Shown here: in pieces, positions 21,248 through 46,386 of the stretch | Numbering within the stretch: the first letter of the stretch is position 1 | How the letters are laid out: every line of letters starts with the position of its first letter | Assembly (NCBI GenBank): GCA_000004985.1 | Contig: GG738857.1 | Reading direction: 5' to 3' (one strand) | DNA: 64,000 nucleotides | Source: Naegleria gruberi | Taxonomy: Eukaryota | Notes under the pieces: model-generated | Database searches by the model: none | Seen by the model: the letters and a program-made list of their open reading frames with translations, nothing else | What the model was told of the DNA's origin: nothing | Position numbers and translations under genes: made by a program

Positions 21248-22992
21248 ATGTCAGGTTTTTCATCACAATCTATTCAAGCATCACTTGTTAGACCATCCAA
21301 ATATAGACATTTAAATGGATTTGAAACTAAAAGTGAGAGATATGAAAATATTAATGTTGGTTATGGTCAAAAATTAAGTAATACATTAAAAACCAATGGT
21401 TCAATCTATGCATTACCATTTAATGTAACAGGTGGTACTTTATCATTTAAATATTTAAATGATTATGGTAGATGGGATGAAAAATTACAAAATTATGGAA
21501 TTATTAAGGCTCACAAGGGAAGATTATCAGATTTTGATATTTCCCCTTTTAGAAATAGAGATCATTTAGTAACTGTTTCTAATTCTGATAATATTATTAG
21601 ATATTGGAAATTACCTACAAATAATAATGATAATGATAATAATAGCAATGATATTTCTTCTTCTAATATTACTTCTACTAATACTTCCAATATAAATGGT
21701 AATAATACTATATATAGAACCTATGAAGAAATGGATTGTGATTTGGAATTAAATGATACAAATAATACAAAATCAACTATTAGTAGAATATCATTTAATC
21801 CACTTGTTGATAATTCACTTGTTAGTATTCAAGGAGATTTAATCCATTTTTGGGATGTTGAAAAAAAGAAAATTTTAAATTCAATTCAAAATTTACCAAA
21901 TCCATCAATTTCTAGTAAAACATTACCAACAGTTGAAAGTTTAGGATGGAATGAATATGGTAATTTATTTATATGTGGTACAAATGATCGTTCCATTAGA
22001 ATTTATGATATTAGATTATCTTCCAATTATAGTAATAATAATAATAATAATAATAATCAATCTAATAATCAACAAATATGTATAACTGAAGGACATTCAA
22101 GTATGAAACCATTTCAAACATTATATTGTGAAAATATGTATATATGTAGTGTTGGATTTTCTAAAAATGGAGGTAGAGAATTAGCCATGTATGATATTAG
22201 AAAAGATTTGAAATGTTTACAAAGAATTTCCATTGATAATGGTGGTTCAGTTTTAACACCATTTTATGATTCAGATATTAAATTACTATATTTAGTAGGT
22301 AGAGGAGATGGTAATATTAGATTTTATGAATTAGAAGGTGGTATTATGCATTATTTAAATGATTATAATTGTCAATCTACATCTGCATCTGTTGATTGGT
22401 TACCAAAATGGAAATTAAATGTTAATAATTTTGAATTGGCTAAATTTTTAAGATTAACAAATGAAAAAACAATTGAAACTCTTTCAATGAGAGTTTCTAG
22501 AAAATCAAATATTGAACAATATTTTCAAGAAGATATATTTCCAGATACTTGGAATGGTCAACCTATTTATAATAATACTAATCAATGGTTAAATACTATT
22601 ATTAATAATAATACTACTTCTATTAATAATAATACTATACAAAGTAATATTAATAATAGTAATGGTAATGGTAATGAAAATTTGAATGAAAATGAATTAT
22701 TACAAACTAGACCAACCATGTCATTAAAACCATCTGATAAAATATCTATCTATGATGTACCTATTAGTGAAGGTGGTAAAATTAGACCATCCACTACTAA
22801 TTTAAGTAAATTACATTCATCATCATCTTTAAATAGTATTGAAAATACTCCAACTACTACATTAGATACCCCAACTACTATTACAAATTATAATACAAAT
22901 GAACAAGTTGATGATGAATTTAAAGATTTAAATGAAAATCAACAATTTGATGACAATGAAGAAGAAGAAGAAGAATTAATTACCATTAATAC

Positions 22993-23023
<31 letters not shown>

Positions 23024-26000
23024 GAACATAATCATAATAATTTTAATGATTTAAATGATATAGATTCATTAATGTCACCAACAGAAGCAACTTCCAAATC
23101 CATTTCCATTGGATTAGTTTCTAGTTTAGGTAAAAATGTAGCACTTGCATCAGCTCATATTCCATGGTATAAAAGAATTACAATGGGAATGGGTTATTAT
23201 TTAGGAATGGCAATGTTTTTAATATTTAAATTTACATTCATTTCAATACCTGTTTGGGTTTATCGTAAATCTACTGGTTACACTCCTCCACCTATTAAGG
23301 AACGTTTCGAACAAGTACCTGTTATTAAGGTTATTAAGAAACCTTCAAGAAAAGTTTCATCAAATATCAATTCTTCTACAAGTGTTAAACGTAATATTGT
23401 TGGTGGTGGTGCTAATACTAATAATAATAATACTGATAATAATAATATAACACCTACTACACCAAATGATTATATTAAATCATCAGTATCTAATACATCA
23501 TTATCATTAACTCCACAAACTCCAAGTGGTAGCGGCAATAATTTAATCATTTCAGATCCACTTGCAAGTGAATCAAGTCGATTACTATCACGTGAATATG
23601 GTAGAATTATTATGGAAGAATATATTGGTAAATTAACTAAAGAAGATATATTTCCTAAAAGAGCACATGATAAAGATACCAATCTAAAACAAGTTCTTGA
23701 AATTGATGTAGTTGACTTGAAAAAAGGTCTCACTCATGTACTAATTTGGGTAAAAGGACGTAAAAAATCGAGAGCAACACTTGCACCACTTTATTGGACA
23801 AGTTTAAATCATAATGATTGTTTCATTTTGGATTGTGGTAAAATTTGTTACATTTACAATGGACAATATTCTAACAAATTATGTAGAGCTAAAGCATTAG
23901 ATATTTCACAAATGATTAAATATAAGGAAAGAGGTGGTGATTGTCAAGTTGTAATTATTGATGGTATTGATTATTCTAATAATGGAAATAATTCTAATAA
24001 TAATTCTAATAACAATGACATGACACCATTATATAAAAAACAAGTATTACAATTTTGGAAAGAATTAGGATTAACAAGTGAAAATGAATTTTGTGAATTA
24101 TTAAATATTCACTTTCCTAAAAAGGAAGATTCTAGTAGTAGTAGTAATAATAATGTATTAAACAGATTAAAATTAACAGATAAATCTAAATTTACATCAA
24201 AAGATGAATTAAATGATGATTTATATCAACAATTTAATGATTTAGGTCAAAGATTATATAAATTAAATTCAGAAATCTTTGAAGAACTTCCACTAAAAAT
24301 AGAATTAAATGAAACACAAGATGAATACATAGAAAGAATATCACCATATATGTTAAGTGTTATAAAATTAAATCAAATACCAGGTGGTGAAATTGTAAAT
24401 TTAAAAGAATTAGAAAATTTATTAAATAATGAAAAGAATTTAATTGATCCAAATAAGGTATCAGAAATTACACAACCATCACATCATGTTTTACATTCTG
24501 ATCAATGTTACATTTTTGAAAGTTTATTTACAAATGAAGTTTTCTTTTGGAGTGGAAAACAAAGTAATTTAAATATTAGAAAATGGGGAATTGCTATTGC
24601 TAAAAAATTAGCACAATATAGATCTTTAAATAATAATCCATTTTCATTGAAAAATCCAATTTTACAACGTTTTAAATCTATTTTAAATAATTCTATTAAT
24701 ATTACTATAAATGGAAGTAATTCTATAAATGGAAATCAATTACCTAATAATAGAAAATATTTATCATCCATTACACGTGTTATAGAAGAAGGTGAACATT
24801 CTATTTATAAACAAAAATTTAGTGATTATCCAGGAATGTTAATGATTCAAACACAATCACAAGAATCACGTGGAAATGTTGCAGAAAAAAAGAAACAATC
24901 AAAAATTAATTTTTTAGAATTATTAAAATCTAAAAATAATTTAAAAGAAGAATTAAAATCTAATTCACAAAAACAATTTATTGATCCAACTTTAGTAACT
25001 ACCATATATAGTAGTAAAATTAGAATGTGGAGAGTGAGTGATTTTCAAAAAATACCATATCAACATTTAGGTCATTTCTTTACAGGTGATGCATTTATTA
25101 TTTTATTTACCTATACAAAAATAGAAGGTGGTAAATCTTTCCATAAATTATTCTTTTGGCAAGGAAGAGATATTAAAAAGAAAGATAAAGGAACATCTGC
25201 ATATAAAACTGTTGAAATTAATGAAATGATTGATGAAGGTGTTGTAGAAAATCAAATTAGAGTTGTACAAGATAAGGAACCTAAACTATTTTTAGATTTA
25301 TTTAAATTTAACCCAAATAGTATGGAAGAGAGTACTACTATTGAAAATGATAAACATTATAAGAAGGTACCTTATTTTATTCATAAGGGTAAATATAGAC
25401 CTTCTGTTTTGGAATCTTTTGAAAAGGCTAACAAATTATCTTCTATTATTGGTAATATTTCTAATAATAATAATAATGGAAATATTAATCCAAAATCATC
25501 ACCATTACCAAAATTAAATATTTCTAATAATACAAATGATAATAATAATACAAATAATACCACTACAACTACACCAACAACACCTACAATTTCAAATGAT
25601 GAAGAAATGAATCTTGCACCTGTTAAATTATTTACTTCCATAAATGGAAATTTAGATGAAAATGAAAAATTTTCACCTCAAATTTTACAATTCCAAACAG
25701 AAATGATTGAAAGAATAATTTCTAAAAATATAAAATTAGAATATTTAAAATCCTATGATTTTAGAAATGGAATTTTATGTGAAACTGATGATTTACATCC
25801 AAATTATTTAAATCCATTTAATTTAATAATTTTTTCAAATTTAAATTTTAATGTTTATTTAAATAGAATTGAACTAAATAAGGAAATTGAACAAGATGAT
25901 TTAAAAACTATTATTTATTATGGAAAATATTGTAAAGAATCTGATAAGAAATTTATTGAAAATAATGTTTTAAATTTATTTAATAATAATAATATAATTA

Positions 26001-26908
26001 CTATAAATGGAAATAATCAAGAATTATTAGAAAATGTATTTACTAAGGAAATTGATCCAACATTTGAATATTTTATTTCTAGATTTAATAATTATTTAAA
26101 TACTTTTGAATTTAAAAATAATTATAATATTTCCTTTTATAATATTAATGATCATTCAGGTGAATTTACTTTAAATAGATTGGATCCATTTGGTGAAATT
26201 GATTTATCTTCTTCACAAGCCTTTATTTTAGATTGTCTTGATTTAGAAGGTAAAATCTATGTTTGGATTGGAATGTTATGTAATATTGAAACAAAGAAAT
26301 TTGCACTTTCAACTACCATTCAATATTACTATACATGGAAATCACAAACTTGTAATGATGAATTTTATAAGAAGAAACCTCAAAATGATGACATGGATGA
26401 TTTTGATCCAAGTAAATTTTTACAAAAATCAGATGAACAATCATTACTTGTCATTCAAGAAATGGAAGAACCACAAGAATTTACAAAACATTTCATTTCA
26501 TGGTCAATTAATTCAACTTCATTCAAAGTTAGATTTAAACAATTACAAGATCCAAATTTAATTTCAAAGGGTTTTGTTAAAACACCAAGAACTCCAAGAA
26601 GATCAAATATTAATGTTCAAATTTCTAAACATGAAAAGAATTTATTTGAACATTCTTCATCCATTTTTGAAATTGAACATTGTTCAAATGTTTTACAATT
26701 ATATAACAAATTATTTACTCACAAAACTTATAGTTATGCAATTTTAACAAGTGGTGCAAATATTCCAGAAGGTATTGATAAATCTAAATTAGAATCTTAT
26801 TTATCAAATGAAGAATTCCAAAAAGTATTTGGAATGGATAAAAAGAAATTTGCTACTTTACAAAATTGGAAACAAACCTCTTTGAAAAAGGAAAAGAATT
26901 TATTTTAA
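21248..26908 (+). CDS. Villidin-like giant actin-binding protein: N-terminal coronin-type WD40 domain, long low-complexity linker, several gelsolin repeats and a C-terminal villin headpiece (1886 aa, single exon)
   Basis: The N-terminus has the coronin signature RPSKYRHLNG plus WD blades. Gelsolin repeats include LNHNDCFILDCGKICYIYNGQYS, IRMWRVSDF..GDAFIIL..FFWQGRD..IRVVQDKEP and LDPFGEIDLSSSQAFILDC. The C-terminal LSNEEFQKVFGMDKKKFATLQNWKQTSLKKEKNLF is a villin headpiece (cf. [35 protein letters not shown]). This architecture is known from Dictyostelium villidin. Confidence 0.85.
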
Positions 26909-26975: not shown

Positions 26976-29607
26976 TTAATAATTTGTACATCCATTTTCC
27001 TTCATGTACTTTTCTGCATCAAGTCTAGAAGTAAATGATTTAAATTTTGCTCCTTGAAATTGATCAACTTGAATTTTACATTCGTCCCACGTATTAAATA
27101 TACCTGTTCTTCTACCAATACAAACACAATATAATTTACCACTCTTTGACATTCCACTACTTCCACTTCCACTTCCACTACTACCATAACTTTTAGATGT
27201 ATTACTGTTACTGTTGGATGTTATTGCTCTTCCAGGATTAAGTTTTGATTTTTTCATAATTTGTGAATGATAAGATGTTCCACTCTGAGTAGAATTTGAA
27301 TCATTTTTACGTTTCTTTGTATTTCCACCACCACTTGTAAAATCTGATAAATCTAAATTTTGTAAAGTTTCTTCAAATATTTTTCTTCTCTTTTCAAAAG
27401 ATTCTTCATTCTTTTTTAATAAATTTTCAATAAATAAATCTTTTGAACTTGTATCTTGTGCTGAATATTGTTCTTGTTTTTTAAGTTTGTTATAAAAATC
27501 AATTGCTTCTCTATTTATATGTCTAGTTAAATTATATGAATTAAAATTTGTAACTTTTAAATATTTCATTGTTTTTGCACGTGATAATGCAACATAGATT
27601 TGACCTGGACTAAACACTGTTGATAAATCAATTACACATTTTTGTAATGTTAATCCTTGTGTTTTATGTACTGTCATGGCTATTATTATTAAATTTAAAA
27701 ATATAAAATATTAAATATTAAATATTAATATAAATTAAATATTAATATAAAAATATTAAATTATTAAATATTAAATTAAAAAACATACCATAAGCTAATT
27801 TTAAAGGAATTTGAATTCTAACACCTTTAGATTTTTTTGGACCATCTGTTTCAAAAATGGTAGGATGTACAATTTTAATAATTTTAATTTCCTTTCCATT
27901 TTCTTCTCTTGTAAAAACCACTTTTGGAAATAATTCACCATTTTCATTAATATATTGTTCAGCATATTGTTTAATATTCTTATTTGAACTTTGTAAATCA
28001 CTTGGTGTTTGTTTAATAAAACCAATAATTTCACCTCTTGTTCCATTCACTAATTGATTTGTAAAATCATTTTTAATTATCATTACTTGTGCTCCAATAC
28101 GTAAATTAATTTCCTGTGATGCATTAGATGAATTAAAATTTGTTAATATAGCACTTTTAATATATTCTTTAATAGTTGGATGATCTACTTTTGGATCATA
28201 ATCTCCATATGAAAAAAATGTTTGATCTCTATAAGTATATTGTGGTGGTGATAATTTTAATAATTCTGTATCATTCACTGTATCTACATTCTTATTTAAT
28301 GTATGAATAACTGTTGCCTTTTCAATTCCATCAAATTTATTATTTTCTAATCTTTTTAATGTTTGTACTATATTATTATTAGTTTGACAACATCTAATAG
28401 AATTTAATATTGATATCCATTCTTTTTCTTCCTGTCTAAATACATTACTCAATTCAAATGTATATTTAATTGTACGTTCCCAACATGTAGCTTTAAAACA
28501 CATTTCCTTTTTTTGATAAATAGTTTCACCATGTTCATTTTTAAATGATTTACTAACAGGTGGTAACTATAAATATATTTGATAGATTTTGAATAGATAT
28601 TGTAGTAGAATTATTATTATTAGATTAGATTAATGTGAATATGAATATTATATTTTGAGATTAAATTGAATGGTATTAGATTTGATTGGTGTGAATATGA
28701 TTGAAAATCATTAAAAAAAACAAACCTGTAAGAAATCACCACATAAAATAACTTGAATTCCACCAAATGCAGGTAATTGTTTCATAATAACTTCTTTAGG
28801 TGCTCTAGATGCAGCAATTTCAAAGAAACATCTAATTTCAGTTGCAATTGATTCTAATTGATCAAAATATTGACCATCAATCATTGAAATTTCATCAACA
28901 ATTAAAACATCAACACTTCTCCATTCTTTTTCATTTCTCCAAGCTGTTTTACTATCAACTTTACCATTATCCAATGTTCTAATACCTGCAAATGAGCTAA
29001 TTAATTTTTAAATAAAGTATTACAATATAATTACAATGTTAAATATAAGTATACTATAATAATTAGAAATATTTACATACTGTATAGTTGATCCACCAAT
29101 ATTAACAGCAGAAATACCAGTTGAAGCAGTCACCACAACTTTCTTTTGTTGAACATTTGATAAAGTTTGAATAATACATTCTAATAAGAAACTTTTACCA
29201 GTTCCAGCAACACCTGTAATAAAAACTGAATGTCCTTCCATTACACATTTCAAAACATTCATTTGTTCATCACTTAATTTTGATAACAAGCCTTGATAGG
29301 TATCACATTGATTTAAATCAAAACTAGCTAATTCGGGAAATATTGTTGAAGGTAATTCTTGTTGTTTACTTTTCAATTTCATATCATTTGCAAATGATGT
29401 AATTGATCCGAGTGTTTTTGGAGGTGCTTTAGTTGTTGTTGCTGTTGATGTTGTTGTACTATTACTAACACCAGTACTAAAGGAAGGCTTTTTAGATGCT
29501 GAAGCTTTCTTAATTTTAGGTGGTGCACCTCCTCCGGAAGAAGGCATTGATCTTGGTTTTGGCTTTGCATTTGCAGGTACAAATACTACTCCATTCTTTT
29601 CTAACAT
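26976..29607 (-). CDS. PIF1: PIF1-family 5'-3' DNA helicase with a C-terminal RNase H1 N-terminal-type hybrid-binding domain (HBD/Cauli_VI). About 4 exons on the minus strand
   Basis: It has Walker A VFITGVAGTGKSFLL; GGSTIQ|HSFAGI after the spliced intron (cf. Pif1 NIGGITIHSFAGIG); motif II VLIVDEISMI; FGGIQVILCGDFLQ; and MTVHKTQGLTL..VDL..PGQIYVALSRAK. The last exon ends with KLYCVCIGRRTGIFNTWDECKIQVDQFQGAKFKSFTSRLDAEKYM, which matches the RNase H1 N-terminal HBD consensus (FYAV.RGR.PGIY..W.EC..QV.GF.GA.FKKF.T..EA..F). Confidence 0.85.
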
Positions 29608-46315: not shown

Positions 46316-46386
46316 TCGGGTGTGGTATAGTGGTAGCATTCCAGACTGTCACTCTGGCGACCCGGGTTCAATTCCCGGCACTCGAG
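46316..46386 (+). tRNA. tRNA-Asp (anticodon GTC)
   Basis: TCGGGTG-TG-GTATAGTGGTAGCAT-T-CCAGA-CTGTCAC-TCTGG-CGAC-CCGGG-TTCAATT-CCCGG-CACTCGA-G. The acceptor stem has 7 bp including one G.U pair. The anticodon loop CTGTCAC gives anticodon GUC, and the T-loop is TTCAATT. A T5 run at 46392-46396 serves as the Pol III terminator. Confidence 0.85.

Follow-up and report, generated by a model that had tools for sequence, protein, structure and literature searches.

Helicases of the PIF1 family, such as Pif1 and Rrm3 of Saccharomyces cerevisiae and human PIF1, are built around an SF1B core that includes the full set of motifs and a 2B domain. Their N-terminal regions are disordered or PIF1-specific (PF25344 in the animal proteins listed), and they carry no hybrid-binding domain (HBD) of the kind found in RNase H1. 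Yeast Pif1 unwinds RNA-DNA hybrids preferentially, faster than DNA duplexes, without binding them preferentially (PMC2034482). At tRNA genes, R-loop damage is suppressed by PIF1 helicases (PMC5413955).

Accessory modules have been described in other members of the family. The C-terminal WYL domain of Thermotoga elfii Pif1 (TePif1) is an accessory nucleic-acid-binding domain that modulates activity, raising substrate affinity and tuning both the ATPase and the helicase (10.1101/163188). Andis et al. (10.1101/163188) also refer to earlier work on amoebae, which had found PIF1 helicases whose accessory domains include one described as “RNase H1-like RNA binding”; from its topic and from the reference lists of other papers, this work is identified as Harman and Manna, 2016 (Mol Phylogenet Evol 103:64-74). 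No biochemical follow-up of these amoebal fusions was found in the literature searched. Among the homologues of the protein described here, PIF1 is also joined to U-box (PF04564, Dictyostelium discoideum DDB_G0293212), BRCT (PF00533) and SAP (PF02037) domains. These proteins follow the same principle of a generic motor with a targeting module; the modules differ from the HBD, as presumably do their modes of targeting (ubiquitin, phosphoprotein or DNA binding).

Eukaryotic RNase H1 consists of an HBD (PF01693), a connection domain and an RNase H domain; the HBD is N-terminal, and a flexible linker joins it to the catalytic domain. The substitutions W43A and KK59/60AA in the human HBD abolish hybrid binding (PMC10639055, PMC6868509), and the same three residues are changed in the standard binding-dead WKK mutant.

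The Naegleria gruberi gene described here joins a PIF1 core to this RNase H1 module. It lies on the minus strand of the window (the whole stretch of DNA analyzed, 64,000 nucleotides), and the limits that the initial annotation gave for a PIF1-HBD fusion, 26976-29607, coincide exactly with its coding sequence, from the ATG at 29607 to the TAA at 26976-26978 (Table 1). The length of the gene model is a multiple of 3, it has no internal stop, and its GT..AG introns have a GC content of 3-18%. Upstream of 29607 there is no in-frame ATG before a stop, and the model is colinear, from the initial Met through to its C-terminus, with the orthologues of 752 aa in N. lovaniensis and 769 aa in Willaertia.

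Table 1. The PIF1-HBD gene of N. gruberi and its parts, in positions of the window.
Feature	Position	Strand	Remarks
PIF1-HBD gene, whole CDS	26976..29607	minus	4 exons, 759 aa; ATG 29607; TAA 26976-26978
Exon 1	29081..29607	minus	low-complexity N-terminus (aa 1-104), motif I / Walker A, start of motif Ia
Walker A GVAGTGKS (exon 1)	29191-29214	minus	
Intron 1	28997..29080	minus	84 nt, GTATGT..TTAG, GC 12%
Exon 2	28726..28996	minus	motif II / Walker B, motif II-III region (..FGGIQ..), first half of motif III (GDFLQ)
Walker B DEISM (exon 2)	28882-28896	minus	
Intron 2	28567..28725	minus	159 nt, GTTTGT..ATAG, GC 18%
Exon 3	27789..28566	minus	second half of motif III, motif IV, 2B/SH3-like domain, start of motif V
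Motif IV LSNVFRQ (exon 3)	28432-28452	minus	
2B/SH3-like domain (exon 3)	28018-28122	minus	Pfam PF21530, aa 415-449
Intron 3 (last)	27680..27788	minus	109 nt, GTATGT..ATAG, GC 3%
Exon 4	26976..27679	minus	motif V (MTVHKTQGLTL), motif VI, tether, HBD
Motif VI GQIYVALSRAK (exon 4)	27573-27605	minus	
Post-core segment	27336..27530	minus	aa 576-640; modeled as a long helix in the orthologue
Flexible linker	27138..27335	minus	aa 641-706; 77% Ser/Gly/Asn/Thr/Lys
HBD (PF01693)	27006..27137	minus	aa 707-750; W723 at 27087-27089

Each splice junction reconstitutes conserved sequence. Removal of intron 1 restores the motif Ia sequence GGSTIHSFAGI and that of intron 2 restores GDFLQ/LPPV, which is invariant across PIF1 homologues, while the junction left by intron 3, LKLAY/AMTVHKTQG (IPLKLAYAMTVHKTQG), is the same in N. 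lovaniensis and Willaertia. The last intron had initially been placed at 27678-27741; its actual limits (27680-27788) leave the conclusion unaffected, and it appears that the ends of open reading frames (ORFs) had been taken for exon ends. The last exon does encode the module of about 45 aa that was assigned to it, together with part of motif V, motif VI and a tether of about 130 aa. A single uninterrupted ORF (26976..27677, 233 aa) holds the motif V/VI part, the tether and the HBD; the fusion is therefore independent of any splice.

The PIF1 (SF1B) helicase core is intact and spans aa 105-575. Pfam recognizes PF05970 (PIF1) at aa 110-314 with 127.1 bits against a cutoff of 25.9 (E 1e-36), and PF21530 (Pif1_2B) with 29.3 bits against a cutoff of 23.9. 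The motifs are complete (GVAGTGKS, TASTGISAVNIGGSTIHSF, DEISM, GDFLQLPPV, VFRQ, TVHKTQGLTL, and YVALSRAK), and in an alignment of 47 PIF1 homologues all 47 invariant columns are kept in the N. gruberi protein. The Walker A residues G135, G137, and K138 are invariant in both homologue alignments, with S139 invariant in one and nearly so in the other. The PIF1 signature region between motifs II and III (FDQLESIATEIR...LPAFGGIQ) is likewise present and, as judged by alignment only, lines up with that of the homologues. The best solved relatives of the core are C. albicans PIF1 (7OTJ, E 4e-68), ScPif1 (5e-63) and human PIF1 (7e-59), and core identity to the canonical S. cerevisiae and human proteins is 32-37%. 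In a fold search, the AlphaFold model of the full-length N. lovaniensis orthologue matches 7OTJ and 6HPQ with E-values of 1e-40 to 1e-43, whereas the non-PIF1 SF1 helicases RecD2 and Dda reach only about 1e-14 to 1e-15. By these sequence criteria, the protein is a PIF1-family helicase with an intact motor, and 5'-3' unwinding is predicted.

The C-terminal module, KLYCVCIGRRTGIFNTWDECKIQVDQFQGAKFKSFTSRLDAEKY, occupies aa 707-750 of the spliced product (window 27006-27137) and is preceded by SYGSSGSGSGSSGMSKSG, the Ser/Gly-rich linker between core and module that had been noticed at the outset. The profile search proposed for the C-terminus finds PF01693 (Ribonuclease H1 N-terminal domain) at full length (model positions 1-44 of 44), with 58.6 bits against a gathering cutoff of 21 (E 7e-16) and 63.9 bits when the tail alone is scanned, a match well beyond chance. 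In a phmmer search of PDB sequences, the HBDs of human RNase H1 (3BSU, E 1.7e-10) and yeast RNase H1 (1QHK, 1.8e-10) are retrieved, with identities of 43-50%. When the C-terminal 64 aa are modeled with AlphaFold, the core has a pLDDT above 92 and the elements follow the order E13-18, E23-25, H28-35, E42-46, H49-59, that is, β-β-α-β-α. The model superimposes on 3BSU with an rmsd of 0.7 Å over 46 columns (target-normalized TM 0.91) and on 1QHK with 2.2 Å, and the fold search with this model gave no other fold at E < 1. The predicted structure thus is of the RNase H1-type HBD fold.

The alignment with the human domain also allows its ligand-contacting residues to be placed. In the phmmer alignment W723 corresponds to human W43, K739 to K59, and S740 to K60, and the equivalents of human Y29, W43, F58, K59, and F61 are all kept; on this alignment the domain retains both the Trp and the first of the two lysines on which hybrid binding by the human HBD depends. 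Among PIF1-fused HBDs, the W43-equivalent Trp is present in 69 of 69 copies and the K59 equivalent in 61 of 69. Of about 295 sampled HBD copies from outside PIF1, a set picked by similarity to the N. gruberi window sequence, 86 have Ser at position 60, where Ser, Gly and Ala are common. Because these residues are common at position 60 in HBDs, the change from K60 to S740 would lower the case for hybrid binding only slightly, and decay specific to PIF1 is rejected as its explanation. Scanned with Pfam at E up to 0.1, the complete protein shows no RNase H catalytic domain (PF00075), and the ORF ends 9 codons past the HBD, which rules out that the gene is an RNase H1 gene.

The tether as a whole (aa 576-706) is helical and disordered, and rich in Ser, Gly and Asn. 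In the N. lovaniensis orthologue model a helix runs from 618 to 655 (pLDDT 82-95), and the stretch equivalent to the linker has pLDDT values below 50. The survey of related genomes suggested by the initial annotation finds the C-terminal HBD in common among the N. lovaniensis, Willaertia, and Acrasis orthologues. Identity to N. lovaniensis and Willaertia is 79 and 67% in the core and drops to 36 and 24% in the linker, which contains indels (20 gaps against N. lovaniensis); the post-core segment is 46% identical to that of N. lovaniensis. Across N. lovaniensis, Willaertia, Acrasis and metagenomic relatives, linker identity is 8-36% with many indels. HBD identity, by contrast, is gap-free, at 65% to N. 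lovaniensis, 54% to Willaertia and 38-46% to Acrasis and the metagenomic relatives. Because ungapped identity stays high while the adjoining linker is evolving fast, the HBD is, at the level of sequence comparison, an island of conservation.

The impression in the initial annotation that this architecture had gone undescribed for canonical PIF1 proteins is not supported. Besides the amoebal proteins mentioned above, which as cited by Andis et al. (10.1101/163188) represent the same kind of fusion (Naegleria being an amoeboflagellate), PF05970 and PF01693 occur together in the precomputed database annotation of 20 of the 120 PIF1 homologues listed. As far as these sources go, the PIF1-HBD fusion, which is widespread in eukaryotes, is already known from reports on amoebae and from database annotation; the architecture is genuine and makes sense, yet it is no novelty. 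Among the best 150 representatives of 50%-identity clusters, PIF1 and HBD are combined in 29, forms with two tandem HBDs included. The HBD is C-terminal on PIF1 in Naegleria, Willaertia, Acrasis and three metagenomic relatives, and N-terminal where its position was mapped elsewhere, in Physarum, Agaricomycetes (seven named proteins), Mesostigma and others, sometimes in tandem. Named taxa with the fusion include Mesostigma, the dinoflagellate Durusdinium and Colletotrichum. From the C-terminal position in Heterolobosea against the N-terminal one elsewhere, it follows that the fusion arose at least twice in eukaryotes; in a neighbor-joining tree, which has no support values, the C-terminal group and the fungal N-terminal group are separate helicase clades. 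A profile search with 20 HBD sequences returned only short stand-alone HBD fragments, with no Naegleria RNase H1 and no fusion taxa among them. The breadth of HBD-PIF1 fusions may exceed that of the 2016 amoeba survey.

The best account of these features, with a probability of roughly 70%, is that the protein is a cellular PIF1-family 5'-3' DNA helicase with an added module for binding nucleic acid, in which the HBD would tether the motor to RNA:DNA hybrids from which the RNA is then stripped. That the HBD directs the helicase to such hybrids, as the initial annotation proposed, may reasonably be inferred. The HBD would dock on the duplex part of a hybrid (R-loops, Okazaki primers and the hybrid of telomerase RNA with the telomere are examples) and would thereby place the motor at high local concentration beside its substrate. 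The motor could then load on adjoining single-stranded DNA, travel 5'-3' on the DNA strand and strip the RNA. The HBD would in this way supply the substrate-binding specificity that yeast Pif1 lacks. An HBD clamped on the duplex that is being unwound could also hinder the motor instead of helping it.

The N. gruberi protein shares with RNase H1 the same PF01693 module (human 3BSU/6VRD, yeast 1QHK) and the arrangement of HBD, flexible linker and engine, with an unwinding engine replacing the nuclease, and the two presumably act on the same substrate, RNA:DNA hybrids. It differs in that the RNase H domain is missing, so that RNA is predicted to be displaced by ATP-driven unwinding and not cut, and in that its HBD is C-terminal with Ser in place of K60. 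As an analogy, TePif1 with its WYL domain is the best precedent from experiment for the working of such a PIF1 tail, although TePif1 is bacterial and its WYL domain binds single-stranded DNA rather than hybrids and has a fold unrelated to the HBD.

The most serious alternative accepts the fusion and gives the HBD another partner: double-stranded or structured RNA, or a regulatory or protein-interaction role such as tethering to an RNP or auto-inhibition of the motor. Since HBD-type domains bind dsRNA too, though less tightly, something other than a hybrid could be the ligand. Originally, PF01693 was described as a family of domains that bind both dsRNA and hybrids, and it occurs in caulimovirus P6 as well. 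The serine at the position of human K60 and the stand-alone and multi-copy proteins without a catalytic partner in which the HBD is found in the database sample also speak for such a role. It nevertheless seems unlikely, given that the modeled domain finds its closest structural match, at 0.7 Å, in the human HBD in its hybrid-bound form, and that the equivalents of W43, F58, K59, Y29, and F61 are all retained. The partners of the domain point the same way: in a Pfam census of non-PIF1 representatives, RNase H is the other main one (50 of 119 proteins), and the recurrent partner is a helicase with a documented preference for the RNA-DNA hybrid as substrate (PMC2034482). That the HBD is instead a decaying remnant of an old fusion, with no present function, would fit the replacement of one canonical contact lysine (S740). 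This is very improbable in view of the gap-free conservation of the HBD beside a linker of 8-36% identity with many indels, of a model core with pLDDT above 92, and of the Trp kept in every one of the 69 PIF1-fused copies.

Two further readings concern the gene itself rather than the ligand. The helicase could belong to a Helitron-type or other mobile element whose PIF1-like helicase captured an HBD, and a weak sequence match to the Helraiser transposase (E 6e-11, about 80 aa) is accompanied by a fold match. Such a match is expected, however, because the Hel domains of Helitrons are themselves of the PIF1 family (PMC8788227), and cellular PIF1 structures are matched at about E 1e-59 to 1e-68. 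The Pfam scan contains no Rep/HUH domain and no transposase family, the 64-kb window holds one PIF1 and one HBD only, and colinear orthologues exist in three heterolobosean genera. A mobile-element origin is thus extremely improbable, and a Helitron Rep/Hel transposase as such is rejected on the missing Rep domain, the single copy in the window and the existence of orthologues. The last reading, that a separate PIF1 gene and the start of an RNase H1 gene were wrongly joined in the gene model, can draw on the fact that the spliced 759-aa model has no exact match in the protein collection. It is scarcely conceivable against motifs V and VI and the HBD lying in one ORF of 233 codons with no stop between them, and it is effectively ruled out by motif VI and the HBD sharing that ORF. 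Moreover, the ORF ends 9 codons past the HBD without any RNase H catalytic domain, the next gene is convergent, and independently annotated orthologues share the layout. The joining of PIF1 to an RNase H1-type HBD, as initially described, is supported by Pfam, by the search of PDB sequences, by the fold prediction, by the colinearity of the orthologues and by the continuous ORF that links motif VI to the HBD.

A natural PIF1 helicase with a module predicted to be dedicated to hybrid binding, invented more than once, is evolutionary evidence for hybrid removal as a selected function of PIF1. The tail also provides a clean experimental handle, since the protein can be compared with and without its HBD, or the HBD grafted onto yeast or human PIF1. 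A wider and more doubtful proposal is that HBD-PIF1 fusions, spanning at least five major eukaryotic groups and joined independently at the C- and N-terminus, mark the non-nucleolytic removal of hybrids as a core, repeatedly reinforced job of PIF1. HBD-PIF1 proteins might then be dedicated “R-loop helicases” parallel to RNase H1, and in Naegleria such a protein could be the main PIF1.

Within the linker, a basic KKRK patch noticed by eye is a candidate nuclear localization signal. The PIF1-HBD ORF ends 9 codons past the HBD, and the next gene is convergent at a distance of 67 bp; the neighboring ORF, which encodes a coronin protein, is identical to XP_002679446.1.

The PIF1 gene whose product carries an RNase H1-type RNA:DNA hybrid-binding domain (HBD) lies in very AT-rich DNA (22-35% GC). 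Its introns of 84, 159 and 109 nt are all GT..AG and contain 3-18% GC, and the three splice junctions rebuild conserved PIF1 motifs (GGSTI/HSFAGI, GDFLQ/LPPV and LKLAY/AMTVHKTQG). The last intron is located at 27680-27788, and not at 27678-27741 as proposed in the initial annotation. The last exon, previously described as encoding a ~45-aa module, does encode the HBD, but it also includes part of motif V, motif VI and a tether of ~130 aa. Motif VI and the HBD therefore share a single uninterrupted ORF (26976-27677), and a failure to splice the C-terminal exon, considered at that stage, could not part the HBD from the helicase.

Features of the PIF1-HBD locus and of two further genes in the window
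Feature	Position	Strand	Description
PIF1-HBD gene, whole	26976-29607	minus	four exons, CDS 2280 nt, 759 aa
Exon 1	29607-29081	minus	assembled gene model
Exon 2	28996-28726	minus	assembled gene model
Exon 3	28566-27789	minus	assembled gene model
Exon 4	27679-26976	minus	motif V (part), motif VI, tether, HBD
HBD, aa 707-750	27006-27137	minus	Pfam PF01693
Coronin ORF	21248-26908	plus	single exon, 1886 aa; identical to XP_002679446.1, 'coronin' of N. gruberi
tRNA-Asp (GTC) gene	46316-46386	plus	sole tRNA of the window

Two annotated proteins, one from Naegleria lovaniensis (752 aa, 66-69% identity) and one from Willaertia magna (769 aa, 53-55% identity), both run colinear with the product from its first Met through to the last residues. 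The exact 759-aa protein was not found in a collection of 15 billion proteins, and the best match in a search of 5.8 billion clusters is that of N. lovaniensis, only 69% identical. The same collection includes the N. gruberi protein of the adjoining gene (XP_002679446.1). The PIF1-HBD gene may be absent from the public N. gruberi protein set or modelled differently there; alternatively, the search may hide self-matches.

The PIF1 helicase and the HBD each occur once in the window. The helicase matches PIF1 (PF05970, E 1e-36) and, over its cutoff, the Pif1 2B domain (PF21530). The closest solved relatives of the core are eukaryotic PIF1s (C. albicans 7OTJ, 4e-68; ScPif1 5O6B, 5e-63; human PIF1, ~1e-58), followed among PDB sequences by bacterial Pif1s. 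Motifs I, Ia, II, III, IV, V and VI are all intact, and the protein keeps 47/47 columns invariant across 47 homologues. At the C-terminus, the HBD similarity proposed initially is upheld by Pfam, in which the whole 44-position model of PF01693 (Ribonuclease H1 N-terminal domain, formerly Cauli_VI) is matched with a score of 58.6 bits, the cutoff being 21 (E 7e-16), and by phmmer, whose significant matches among PDB sequences are RNase H1 HBDs only (human 3BSU, 1.7e-10; yeast 1QHK, 1.8e-10; human 6VRD). The AlphaFold prediction for the C-terminal 64 residues, based on an alignment of 20 PIF1-attached HBDs, displays a beta-beta-alpha-beta-alpha topology with core pLDDT above 92. Its best PDB match is 3BSU, the human HBD complexed with a 12-mer RNA/DNA duplex (rmsd 0.7 Å over 46 columns, TM 0.91), and its second is 1QHK; beyond these, the fold search against the PDB gave no match with E below 1. 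In the full-length model of the N. lovaniensis orthologue, which best matches C. albicans, human and yeast PIF1 in the PDB, the core (pLDDT mostly above 90) is followed by a long helix, ~40 residues with pLDDT below 50, and the HBD (pLDDT ~95). The prediction is thus of two folded units linked by a flexible tether.

Identity to N. lovaniensis and Willaertia is 79 and 67% in the helicase core, 46 and 34% in the post-core segment, 36 and 24% in the Ser/Gly/Asn-rich linker, which contains indels, and 65 and 54% in the gap-free HBD. Acrasis and three metagenomic relatives show a like pattern (HBD 38-46%, linker 8-24%). Judged by these comparisons, the HBD is a conserved island rather than a decaying appendage, and it is under purifying constraint. 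Hybrid binding by the human HBD is abolished by W43A and by K59A/K60A (PMC10639055, PMC6868509); of these residues, W43 and K59 persist here (W723 and K739), and K60 is replaced by S740. Among 364 HBD copies sampled by similarity to the window sequence, the Trp is present in 69/69 PIF1-fused copies and the Lys equivalent to K59 in 61 of these 69, and position 60 is variable (Ser, Gly, Lys) in PIF1-fused and other HBDs alike. Because of this variability, S740 was rejected as a mark of PIF1-specific decay.

The protein combines an intact motor, a well-formed HBD with the key Trp and Lys, and a flexible tether. The functional idea of the initial annotation, that the HBD targets the helicase to RNA:DNA hybrids, is plausible. 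The HBD would dock on the duplex part of the hybrid and hold the motor close, and the motor would load on adjacent single-stranded DNA, travel 5'-3' and strip the RNA, with the HBD providing a binding specificity absent from the bare PIF1 motor. PIF1 helicases suppress R-loop-dependent damage (PMC5413955), and in TePif1 the WYL domain, a C-terminal accessory nucleic-acid-binding domain, raises affinity and tunes activity (10.1101/163188). The layout is like that of RNase H1 (HBD, linker, catalytic domain), but this protein would displace the RNA, whereas RNase H1 cleaves it; the Pfam scan found no RNase H catalytic domain. Architecture and targeting together are given a probability of about 0.7, in which the joining of PIF1 to an HBD, as first interpreted, is practically certain and the targeting somewhat favoured.

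An unlikely alternative is that the HBD binds dsRNA instead of hybrids, or serves a regulatory or protein-contact role. That the domain is vestigial is much less probable, given its conservation relative to the linker. Derivation of the helicase from a Helitron or other mobile element is highly improbable: the Helitron transposase match to the core reaches just 6e-11 over ~80 aa, and the Pfam scan found no Rep domain. Least credible is a fusion created by the gene model, against which stands the ORF common to motif VI and the HBD.

Precomputed annotation places PF01693 in 20 of the 120 top-scoring PIF1 homologues. N. lovaniensis, Willaertia magna, Acrasis kona and three metagenomic proteins have the HBD at the C-terminus, and the orthologues do share the fusion. 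At the N-terminus it is found in Physarum polycephalum, in several metagenomic proteins and in seven named proteins of agaricomycetes (Volvariella, Phanerochaete, Tricholomella, Hypsizygus, Antrodiella and Mycena). An exhaustive HMMER search with the last-exon ORF against 1.84 billion cluster representatives yielded 29 PIF1 + HBD proteins among its best 150, the named carriers including Mesostigma viride, Durusdinium trenchii (a dinoflagellate) and Colletotrichum fructicola (an ascomycete). Some (retrieved homologues P0130, from M. viride, P0132, P0143 and P0246) contain two tandem N-terminal HBDs, resembling the engineered RHINO sensor, whose multi-HBD arrangement increases hybrid avidity (PMC10639055). 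In a neighbour-joining tree of helicase cores, computed without support values, the C-terminal-HBD group forms one clade, with Acrasis outside, and the fungal N-terminal-HBD group another, apart from HBD-less agaricomycete PIF1s; Volvariella has PIF1s of both kinds. From the opposite domain order alone, the modules must have been rearranged independently at least twice. The fusion is recurrent and independent, and the architecture is common.

The PIF1 motor often receives targeting modules. Other homologues carry U-box (PF04564), BRCT (PF00533) or SAP (PF02037) domains, and animal PIF1s among the matches listed carry PF25344; the proteins concerned are P0014, P0015 and P0045 (Dictyostelia), P0031, P0079, P0082 and P0091, and P0102 and P0120. 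P0007 (Ceratobasidium theobromae, 1165 aa) contains two complete tandem PIF1 cores (aa 55-562 and 652-1129), which could reflect a true duplication or two genes merged in the model.

In the remaining 119 top HBD proteins, the domain is combined with RNase H (50), a reverse-transcriptase-like RNase H family (15), UvrD/Rep-type helicase (PF00580, PF13361; one or two) and RNase HII (PF01351; one). PIF1 is the commonest non-RNase-H partner in this sample, and through the UvrD/Rep type the HBD is also joined to a second, unrelated helicase family. An RNase H domain is found in only 50/119, so many of these are repeat proteins made of HBDs alone. The HBD occurs in 2 to 8 copies in most of the nearest non-PIF1 proteins that carry it (P0123, four in 242 aa).

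The literature search found no paper naming Pif1 together with Cauli_VI, and papers mentioning Pif1, RNase H1 and the hybrid-binding domain jointly are R-loop reviews that treat the proteins separately. The architecture is nevertheless not undescribed, as had been supposed: a passage in Andis et al. (10.1101/163188) refers to earlier amoeba work on PIF1 helicases with 'RNase H1-like RNA binding' accessory domains, and public databases annotate both Pfam domains in the orthologues. This kind of fusion is already published. The amoeba work is presumably Harman & Manna 2016, Mol Phylogenet Evol 103:64-74, an attribution drawn from its topic and its entry in other reference lists. No biochemical study of any HBD-PIF1 was found in the literature searched. 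The remaining value lies in the evolutionary argument from repeated HBD fusion at both ends of PIF1.

The stops of the PIF1-HBD gene and the convergent coronin ORF are 67 bp apart. By eye, the latter is far longer than a typical coronin, with long Asn-rich tracts and a villin-headpiece-like C-terminus (...WKQTSLKKEKNLF).
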